Sequence record: OR757436.1 | Strand: one strand, 5' to 3' | Length of the DNA stretch: 64,000 bases | From: Escherichia phage vB-EcoP-XT73 | Shown here: piece by piece, positions 4,747 through 5,331 of the stretch | How the letters are laid out: the number at the start of each line of letters is the position of its first letter | How positions within the stretch are numbered: the stretch's first letter is position 1 | Made by a program: the position numbers and the translations under genes | The notes under the pieces: model-generated | What the model was told of the DNA's origin: nothing | The model's database searches: none | What the model saw: the letters and a program-made list of their open reading frames with translations, nothing else

Positions 4747-4891
4747 ATGTAGGGTTGACCTGCCTCTTTTAGAGAGTGCTCAAGGAAAGGCACTAGCCAC
4801 TACGTTGGAGTGGTATCAGGACCAGTACACAGAATGTGCTGCTAATCACAATGGATTGTTAGAAGCTCTGAAAGAGCGTGGAGTAGAGTGA
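4631..4891 (+). CDS. putative o-spanin (Rz1-like lipoprotein)
   Basis: Starts inside the Rz-like gene in another frame; signal peptide ending in lipobox-like TSAC; Pro-rich mature part. Confidence 0.5.
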   Translation: MRKLNQFFIMSALVMTTSACSTSDSSRQSMPLPTNLKAECRVDLPLLESAQGKALATTLEWYQDQYTECAANHNGLLEALKERGVE

Positions 4892-5331
4892 TGGCTATTG
4901 TTTTCGAAGGTAAAGCCAATGTGTTCACAGTGGACGCTCAAACAGTAACTTGCACAGTAAACCTTGTAGGTGTAATGGGTGCAGGAGTAGCCAAGGAGTA
5001 TAAAAGAAGATACCCTGAAGCTTTTGAAAGGTATAAGGTTGCTTGCGACTCTGGATTCCAGATCGGACAACTTCTTCTACAGAGGTTGAATGATGGGAGA
5101 CTGGGATTGTGTTTTCCAACTAAGAAGCATTGGAGAAACGGTTCTGAGGTAGAGTGGATAGAGCAAGGCTTACAAAAGCTATTACTTACCTACAAAGACA
5201 AGGGAATCACCTCTCTAGCCATAACACCTCTGGGTTGTAGCAATGGAGGACTAGATTACCAATCTCAGGTAAGACCTTTAATGTTTAAATACCTAAATCA
5301 GATGGACATACCTGTCTATATCTGTTTGTAA
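4891..5331 (+). CDS. macro-domain protein (ADP-ribose binding/processing)
   Basis: N-terminal [15 protein letters not shown] glycine-rich macro motif. Confidence 0.6.

Follow-up and report, generated by a model that had tools for sequence, protein, structure and literature searches.

The small gene between the o-spanin and sigma-factor genes of Escherichia phage vB-EcoP-XT73 (record OR757436.1) encodes a protein of 146 amino acids which is, with near certainty, a macrodomain protein belonging to the DarG clade, and which probably acts in vivo as an orphan DarG2-type enzyme against DarTG2, in the manner of the phage factor AdfM. XT73 is a phiEco32-like podovirus (Kuravirus, Gordonclarkvirinae) with a 77-kb genome, and the analysis was carried out on a single stretch of 64,000 nucleotides of its DNA, referred to below as the 64-kb window.

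DarT2 ADP-ribosylates thymidine in single-stranded DNA and stalls replication, the macrodomain of DarG2 reverses this modification, and the C-terminal domain of DarG2 additionally sequesters DarT (PMC5179494, PMC7003065). Functional DarTG2 systems, by which replication is stalled, exist in E. coli (PMC7003065). DarTG systems serve as phage defence, and the countermeasures known from phages include AdfA, AdfB, which is a DarT binder (PMC11481870), and AdfN, which is an orphan NADAR directed against DarTG1 (Nat Commun 2025, PMC11825919). Two further countermeasures are macrodomains and both carry the name AdfM. The first, T4 Tk.4, is genetically needed for growth on DarTG2, as was shown with transposon sequencing and a clean knockout, and DarTG2 restricts T5 as well as T4 without adfM (bioRxiv 10.1101/2025.11.20.689424). 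The second is gp104 of PhiKZ, which together with its chimallivirus homologues strips DarT2 ADP-ribose from DNA (Cell Rep 2026, PMC13309987), and which is needed for growth on DarTG2 hosts (PMC13309987).

The coordinates of the gene and of the features around it are collected in Table 1. As read from the sequence, the open reading frame starts with the ATG at 4891 and stops with the TAA at 5329-5331 on the plus strand, and an in-frame GTG is found at 4888, just 5' of the ATG. The start codon of the macrodomain gene and the TGA stop codon of the o-spanin gene share bases in the form TGATG (4889-4893), and because of this overlap the translation of the two genes is probably coupled; the o-spanin gene itself overlaps the i-spanin gene in a different frame. 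The sigma gene is followed on its 3' side by genes for a GTP-binding protein, a dNMP kinase and an exonuclease, in that order. Over the 5-kb stretch around the macrodomain gene, the identity is 99% between XT73 and Escherichia phage vB-EcoP-XT32 and 94% between XT73 and phiEco32, whose orthologue gp37 is labelled 'Appr-1-p processing enzyme family' in both the GenBank and the RefSeq records. Genes of the gp37 type have carried generic annotation only, ever since phiEco32 was deposited.

Table 1. Coordinates of the macrodomain gene and of the surrounding features in the 64-kb window of XT73
Feature	Position	Strand	Basis or remark
gp36-holoenzyme promoter consensus TAATGTATA, exact match (P40)	3525..3533	+	motif search; 5' of gene-40 homologue
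Intrinsic-terminator-like hairpin, AGCCACC-TTCG-GGTGGCT then T6	4360..4383	+	12 nt 5' of i-spanin start
Rz-like i-spanin, phiEco32 gp39 homologue	4396..4746	+	5' neighbour
o-spanin, phiEco32 gp38 homologue	4718..4891	+	o-spanin label in phages Paul, ShigP1, EK5
Shine-Dalgarno-like GGAG	4880..4883	+	8 nt 5' of macrodomain ATG; sequence reading
Macrodomain gene (orthologue of phiEco32 gp37)	4891..5331	+	146 aa plus stop; ORF, profile matches, structure, orthology
Presence/absence cassette, 463 bp	4896..5358 (equally 4891-5353)	+	three-way DNA alignment
Phage sigma factor, phiEco32 gp36 homologue	5354..5998	+	3' neighbour; alternative ATG 5351

The macrodomain fold was recognised by profile and by structure. 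Residues 22-125 matched Pfam PF01661 (Macro) with 36.6 bits against a gathering cut-off of 22, and PHROG 335 was matched with an E value of 7e-32. An AlphaFold2 prediction from the single sequence reached a pLDDT of 54 and was discarded, and the model used instead was built on an alignment of 84 sequences, which gave a macrodomain fold, with a mixed beta-sheet flanked by helices, at a pLDDT of 96.6 and a pTM of 0.90. When this model was compared with the PDB by Foldseek, the best match was the DarG macrodomain of T. aquaticus with ADP-ribose (5m3e; TM 0.92, rmsd 1.5 A), and the top four matches were all DarG or DarTG entries with TM 0.86-0.92, namely T. aquaticus DarG with ADP-ribose, M. tuberculosis DarG (TM 0.89), the Thermosipho DarTG and apo T. 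aquaticus DarG. Human TARG1 followed after the DarG entries (TM 0.82) and then other macrodomains; 182 PDB matches were obtained at E <= 1e-3, and the natural proteins among the 50 listed were macrodomains in all cases. The original prediction had called a macrodomain protein on exactly the coordinates given in Table 1 and had proposed an HMM search and a check of the fold, and the call was confirmed by both.

Within the macrodomain family, the closest affinity is to DarG. The PADLOC DarG profile was matched with 149 bits (E = 4e-44) over profile positions 6-142 of 329 only, and the NCBIfam model antitoxin_DarG was matched over positions 6-144 of 338 (E = 3.8e-41), where the score of 141.5 bits stays under the equivalog cut-off of 250 because half of the model is left unmatched; for comparison, a classical DarG matches over positions 4-325. 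A phmmer search of the PDB gave the M. tuberculosis DarG macrodomain (1e-26), the Thermosipho DarTG fusion (3e-25) and the T. aquaticus DarG (4.5e-24), and far weaker values for TARG1 (E = 0.2) and for the Appr-1-p phosphatase Poa1p (6lfs; E = 1), which by structure ranked 34 or lower in Foldseek with 17-19% identity. These values bear on the possibility that the protein is a small-molecule enzyme, which would process ADP-ribose-1''-phosphate, O-acetyl-ADP-ribose or an NAD-derived signal or toxic metabolite and would thus blunt TIR/Thoeris or NADase immunity. Such a role was generally proposed by Iyer et al. (PMC9503650), and it agrees with the GenBank and PHROG labels 'Appr-1-p processing enzyme family' or 'phosphatase' and with the label 'O-acetyl-ADP-ribose deacetylase' given to relatives by JGI. 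We nevertheless consider it highly unlikely, as the labels are generic superfamily transfers and not tests, the small-molecule families are near noise (Poa1p as above; the NCBIfam ADP-ribose-binding protein at E = 0.011, far under its cut-off), and the catalytic lysine and the DarG clade argue for cleavage of a glycosidic bond on a macromolecular adduct. The interference with NAD-derived immune signalling, which was one of three functions offered by the original prediction, thus found no specific support, and it was the role against an ADP-ribosylating toxin that was singled out by the DarG-type identity and the similarity to PhiKZ AdfM.

The residues of the active site lead in the same direction. 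In the alignments, the catalytic pair N24/K78 of the phage protein corresponds to N22/K80 of the T. aquaticus DarG (TaqDarG) and to N23/K78 of PhiKZ AdfM, and no mutations of TaqDarG do more damage than K80A and N22A (PMC5179494). All 84 relatives have N24, K78, G115 and G119, the phage protein further retains T77, H80 and W81, of which W81 is near-invariant among the same relatives, and TaqDarG T79, H82, W83, G117, N120 and G121 are likewise matched. The protein differs from TaqDarG at two places, where K29 of TaqDarG is A31 and G119 is S117, and K29E and G119E are known to lower the activity of TaqDarG (PMC5179494). Alanine is found at position 31 in 42 of the 84 relatives and serine at position 117 in 22 of them, and PhiKZ AdfM, which is active, carries alanine at both equivalent positions.

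It could still be asked whether the enzyme would erase ADP-ribosylation of another kind, that is, from RNA or protein to which another host toxin or a defence ADP-ribosyltransferase has attached it, or from host proteins whose ADP-ribosylation state is manipulated by the phage. The macrodomain superfamily acts on protein, RNA and DNA adducts, and Iyer et al. have cautioned that the substrate range of a macrodomain is not readable from sequence alone (PMC9503650); the next structural match after DarG, TARG1, is a protein de-ADP-ribosylase; and bacterial RNA ADP-ribosylation and the enzymes which reverse it are documented. We regard this explanation as unlikely, in view of the distance in sequence affinity between DarG (1e-26) and TARG1 (0.2), the retention of W81, whose counterpart W83 in TaqDarG was proposed to stack on the modified thymine (PMC5179494), the pairing of most of the nearest cellular relatives (70 of 80) with DarT-family transferases of single-stranded DNA, and the action of the homologue PhiKZ gp104 on DarT2-modified DNA. 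Human TARG1 (C6orf130) resembles the phage protein in belonging to a macrodomain subclass with a catalytic lysine and in being the second-best structural match, and it differs in being a eukaryotic protein of about 19% identity that was first characterised on protein substrates.

What the phage protein lacks is the second half of DarG. At 146 aa it is without the C-terminal DarT-binding domain (full-length DarG is about 290-370 aa), and a DarT HMM gave no match anywhere in the six-frame translation of the 64-kb window, so that XT73 encodes the catalytic half of DarG as an orphan. A complete DarG, or a DarTG system borne by the phage, was ruled out by the absence of both parts. The DarG macrodomain on its own is able to rescue DarT toxicity (PMC5179494). 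The bacterial DarG2 proteins of T. aquaticus, M. tuberculosis and EPEC share with the phage protein the clade, the fold (TM 0.89-0.92) and the catalytic residues, while they possess a C-terminal domain and an adjacent darT in a toxin-antitoxin operon, and the XT73 protein is encoded by a virulent phage without either.

An orphan macrodomain might also serve as eraser for an ADP-ribosyltransferase (ART) of the phage itself, comparable to Alt, ModA and ModB of T4, in an internal writer/eraser pair or for self-protection. On another phage-like contig, an orphan of 57% identity has an ART-PolyVal gene about 2 kb away, which may point to other partners for members of the clade, and actinophage matches in the phage database are labelled 'ADP-ribosyltransferase' at the corresponding place. 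For XT73 we hold this explanation to be very remote. The ten larger unassigned ORFs of the 64-kb window gave zero ART Pfam matches; the DarT profile and the ART-PolyVal protein found nothing in its six-frame translation, a search which took in all but 12.6 kb of the genome and in which small divergent ARTs could escape; and none of the annotated genes of the close relative Bas91 is an ART. Moreover, no partner gene travels with the macrodomain gene, since the kuraviruses which lack it are otherwise collinear around the slot. With no ADP-ribosyltransferase found within the window, the regulation of ADP-ribosylated host proteins, also among the functions first offered, likewise found no specific support.

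The association with DarT was further examined among bacterial and viral relatives. The 80 closest loci (41-53% identity) were taken from a collection of bacteria and archaea with one genome per species, and in the 70 mentioned above a DarT homologue was either fused to the macrodomain gene or next to it on the same strand; five of the DarT calls were confirmed by Pfam PF14487 and the rest were made with a local HMM built from those five. In the relatives of the 80 loci, the macrodomain makes up the N-terminus of a longer protein, most often of about 290-370 aa. The classical order of DarT then DarG was seen in 13 loci, the macro protein came before DarT in 56, and one was a fusion. In the 56 loci with reverse order, the C-terminal domain of the macro protein is non-classical, and DarT is long (about 330 aa) and divergent. 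The identity of the XT73 protein to bacterial DarG macrodomains was up to 54%, versus 40% to PhiKZ AdfM in the same comparison.

In IMG/VR, relatives are encoded on 392 viral contigs. Among the best 80 of these 392, 47 are stand-alone proteins of no more than 200 aa (143-197 aa) and 33 are longer, and DarT lies beside 29 of the 33 longer forms; those 29 loci, on contigs of viral or proviral origin, are whole DarTG systems. When 1.84 billion cluster representatives were searched exhaustively, 3,369 relatives were obtained at E <= 1e-10, and stand-alone forms and forms of about 280-390 aa are mixed among the best 150. The gene had no match when it was compared at the nucleotide level with 5,426 complete E. 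coli genomes, and it was therefore not captured recently from an E. coli darG. A protein search of PLSDB gave macro proteins of less than 60% identity only, several of them beside DUF4433/DarT and mostly from non-enteric hosts. A neighbour-joining tree, which was without bootstrap support and from which neither common origin nor independent capture was drawn, placed the kuravirus clade beside PhiKZ gp104.

Among the known anti-DarT factors, the nearest is PhiKZ gp104, which shares 41% identity with the XT73 protein (E = 3e-36) along almost the whole sequence, and the residues of the two active sites line up. On the DarG profile, PhiKZ AdfM scored 133 bits against the 149 bits of the XT73 protein. 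The two have in common that they are phage-encoded, stand-alone DarG2-like macrodomains (162 and 146 aa) which match the same region of the DarG profile. They differ in that the jumbo phage PhiKZ imports its AdfM into the phage nucleus whereas the XT73 protein comes from a podovirus that has no nucleus, and in that the activity was demonstrated by experiment for PhiKZ AdfM and is predicted from homology for XT73. T4 AdfM (Tk.4), about 155 aa long, is likewise a stand-alone macrodomain; it too comes from a phage of E. coli, and it lies among small early/middle accessory genes. A common lineage with it was considered and rejected, as the similarity is marginal (pairwise E = 6e-4 over 42 residues, about 16% identity, 36 bits on the DarG profile), and T4 AdfM and the XT73 protein are best seen, from their sequences, as different macrodomain lineages recruited for what would be one job. 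AdfN is comparable as an orphan phage copy of the enzymatic domain of an antitoxin which strips ADP-ribose off phage DNA, but it has a NADAR fold and its target is the guanine adducts of DarT1, in contrast to the thymine adducts of DarT2.

We take DarT2 as the toxin concerned because the protein represents the catalytic half of the DarG antitoxin, and the following course of events may be proposed. Upon infection of a DarTG2-carrying E. coli, DarT2 would be released and would ADP-ribosylate thymidines of the single-stranded phage DNA, so that replication would be blocked. The phage enzyme would come from the middle transcript, alongside the sigma factor and the products of the genes for replication and nucleotide metabolism; it would bind the ADP-ribose adduct in its macrodomain pocket, where K78, aided by N24, would cleave the bond between ribose and thymine, and this cleavage would restore normal DNA. 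As there is no DarG C-terminal domain, sequestration of DarT would not take place, and we propose that the reversal is purely enzymatic and independent of the DarT2 allele. The hydrolase activity on ADP-ribosyl-DNA and the protection from DarTG2 are what we infer from these similarities.

The timing of expression can be estimated by comparison with phiEco32, in which the gp36-dependent promoters consist of the single element tAATGTAtA and precede genes 6, 13, 26, 40, 58 and 68, and in which gp36 itself is the product of a middle gene (PMC8948821). The macrodomain gene of XT73 lies 1.36 kb 3' of the P40 element in the same orientation, and this element is the likely source of a middle transcript that reaches it. 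The terminator-like hairpin precedes the spanin, macrodomain and sigma genes, and transcripts from P40 would have to read through it. A scan of the region for sigma-70 promoters found 14 against 12.5 expected, which is the background level. The gene is thus probably a middle gene that is reached by read-through, and the 'early block' to which the original prediction had assigned it has to be replaced, according to the phiEco32 transcription map (PMC8948821), by a middle-gene block 3' of P40. Its place in a middle operon behind a terminator-like hairpin suggests that the enzyme is possibly made later than would be ideal for anti-defence.

Comparison among kuraviruses showed that the gene behaves as an accessory element. 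The three-way DNA alignment delimited a presence/absence cassette, which contains the macrodomain gene, supplies the sigma gene with a new ribosome-binding site and is flanked by the direct repeat TGATGGC at 4889-4895 and 5352-5358, with ATGGC in phiEco32 and Bas93. In Bas93, which is free of the cassette, the stop codon of the o-spanin gene overlaps the start of the sigma gene, in the same way as it overlaps the start of the macrodomain gene in XT73. At least 80% of the stretch from spanin to macrodomain to sigma gene is covered in 40 phage records, and the protein is encoded at an identity of at least 80% in 43 records. Both flanks are present at about 94-95% identity and the middle is absent in phages such as Bas93, O18-011, 172-1, IMEP8 and ES17. 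The BASEL collection contains macro-positive phages (Bas90 and Bas91) as well as macro-negative ones (Bas86, Bas88, Bas89 and Bas93). Outside the kuraviruses, a copy with 81% identity (69% at the nucleotide level) is located among small early genes in the unrelated Chaseviridae phage DE15, and the metagenomic relative P0020, of 67% identity, lies among similar small genes on a 53-kb contig.

In comparison with phiEco32, the gene showed a dS of 0.47 and a dN of 0.018, that is, a dN/dS of 0.038, with 0.022 for the neighbouring sigma gene; it is a real coding gene under strong purifying selection. Being accessory, horizontally exchanged and strongly conserved, it behaves as expected for an anti-defence factor and not for a core replication function.

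If the inference of an AdfM-type function holds, a single cassette of 463 bp would split the kuraviruses into DarTG2-resistant and DarTG2-sensitive types, and the host range on strains that carry DarTG2, e.g., EPEC, would have a simple marker in the phage genome. Kuraviruses are common E. coli phages and are often considered for therapy. AdfM would furthermore extend beyond T4 and the jumbo nucleus-forming phages to podoviruses and Chaseviridae, which would mean that different macrodomain lineages have been recruited repeatedly and exchanged between unrelated phages. The use of an orphan antitoxin is already known from T4 and PhiKZ (2025-26), and the XT73 protein adds a putative member to these, by which the understanding of DarTG or of macrodomains is left unchanged. 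Our literature search found no paper joining 'DarTG' and 'Kuravirus', and the BASEL phenotyping paper makes no mention of DarTG; since both macro-positive and macro-negative relatives exist in the BASEL collection, the prediction is directly testable.

One variation of the above would be that the orphan is tuned to an uncharacterised system of the DarT family, such as those in the operons of reverse order, or to an adduct specific to kuravirus DNA, in which a non-canonical base was suspected by the BASEL authors. We consider this improbable, and if it were true, it would represent a new branch of the arms race over DNA ADP-ribosylation, with an anti-defence slot of exchangeable content between the genes for o-spanin and sigma factor. 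A third class of phages, with about 77% identity, has other content in this slot, which is two small ORFs in Bas89 and an HNH endonuclease in SU7 and Bas86.

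Where the o-spanin gene ends and the sigma-factor gene begins, the Gordonclarkvirinae have a variable slot, and its occupants and coordinates are listed in the table together with those of the other features. In the window it holds the macro cassette, while in some relatives the slot is empty or carries other genes, and these non-macro occupants could be further anti-defence genes. The spanin genes themselves (window 4396-4891) belong to the middle-gene cluster and lie a long way from the genes for holin and endolysin, both of which are annotated in the late structural cluster of close relatives, and a strong terminator-like hairpin (4360-4383) was observed only 12 nt 5' of the spanin start codon.

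The macrodomain is also found outside this group of phages. Escherichia phage vB_EcoM_DE15, a myovirus of the unrelated family Chaseviridae, encodes a macrodomain 81% identical to that of the window (69% at the nucleotide level). This copy, together with the metagenomic relative P0020 in a similar setting, implies that the macrodomain has been exchanged horizontally between E. coli phage families.

Coordinates of slots, macrodomain loci and gp36 promoter elements
Feature	Locus	Coordinates	Strand	Remark
Slot in window	Window	4889-5358		Macro cassette
Slot in Bas93	L085	1945-2045		Empty
Slot in Bas89	L086	1993-2317		Two small ORFs, 68 and 41 aa
Slot in SU7 and Bas86				HNH endonuclease
DE15 macrodomain	L087	4012-4452		Among small early genes
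P0020 macrodomain	L093	5041-5484		67% identical; setting like that of DE15; 53-kb contig
ART-PolyVal gene and P0023 macrodomain	L090	3510-3926 and 5931-6374	- and +	Likewise L091, L092
Reverse-order operon	L018	4986-6898		Example
Reverse-order operon	L047	4986-6868		Example
Reverse-order operon	L013	4959-6909		Example; 53 more among L005-L084
Two tandem gp36 promoter elements	Window	3444-3461	-
Exact gp36 promoter element	Window	3525-3533	+	Abuts minus-strand copy
gp36 promoter element	Window	3535-3543	-	Abuts exact plus-strand copy
gp36 promoter element, one mismatch (TAATGTTTA)	Window	5279-5287	+	Within macro gene

The viral contigs of IMG/VR showed two populations of DarG-like macrodomains. 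Among the best 80 relatives (L097-L173), 47 were stand-alone proteins of at most 200 aa and 33 were longer forms, with the toxin gene DarT adjacent in 29 of those 33, and the presence of both populations indicates that mobile elements apparently employ one macrodomain for defence and counter-defence alike. For the closest bacterial relatives (L005-L084), the majority were reverse-order operons, in which a macro protein of approximately 300 aa, whose C-terminal half has no match to the classical DarG model, precedes a divergent and long DarT (about 330-345 aa) with a PADLOC DarT score of only 30-37 bits in comparison to 136 for a classical DarT. No description of this DarTG variant was found in the literature searched. 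In phage-like contigs, the orphan macrodomain P0023, 57% identical to the window protein, lies approximately 2 kb from an ART-PolyVal ADP-ribosyltransferase gene (138 aa) on the opposite strand, which may represent a writer/eraser pairing elsewhere in the macrodomain clade; no ART-PolyVal counterpart was found in the window.

The one-mismatch gp36 promoter element lies approximately 67 nt upstream of the sigma-factor start and is kept in phiEco32, for which the only promoter that the literature mentions within gene 37 is a predicted sigma-70 one. Should the element be functional, it would mean that the cassette supplies the sigma gene with an autoregulated promoter absent from macro-less relatives. 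Four further elements, on both strands (window 3444-3543), were found in the 330-bp intergenic region upstream of the gene-40 homologue, and the two abutting copies together form the near-palindrome TAATGTATAcTATACATAA.

Elsewhere in the window, a plus-strand gene run (52084-59269) matches COOH-NH2 ligase, amidoligase and glutamine-fructose-6-phosphate aminotransferase, adjoined by hypothetical proteins, in the Bas91 annotation, and is a putative peptide- or metabolite-modifying cluster. The sole tRNA-Arg (anticodon TCT) is located at 47781-47855 (+), and a homing-endonuclease gene adjoins the corresponding tRNA-Arg in the Bas91 annotation.
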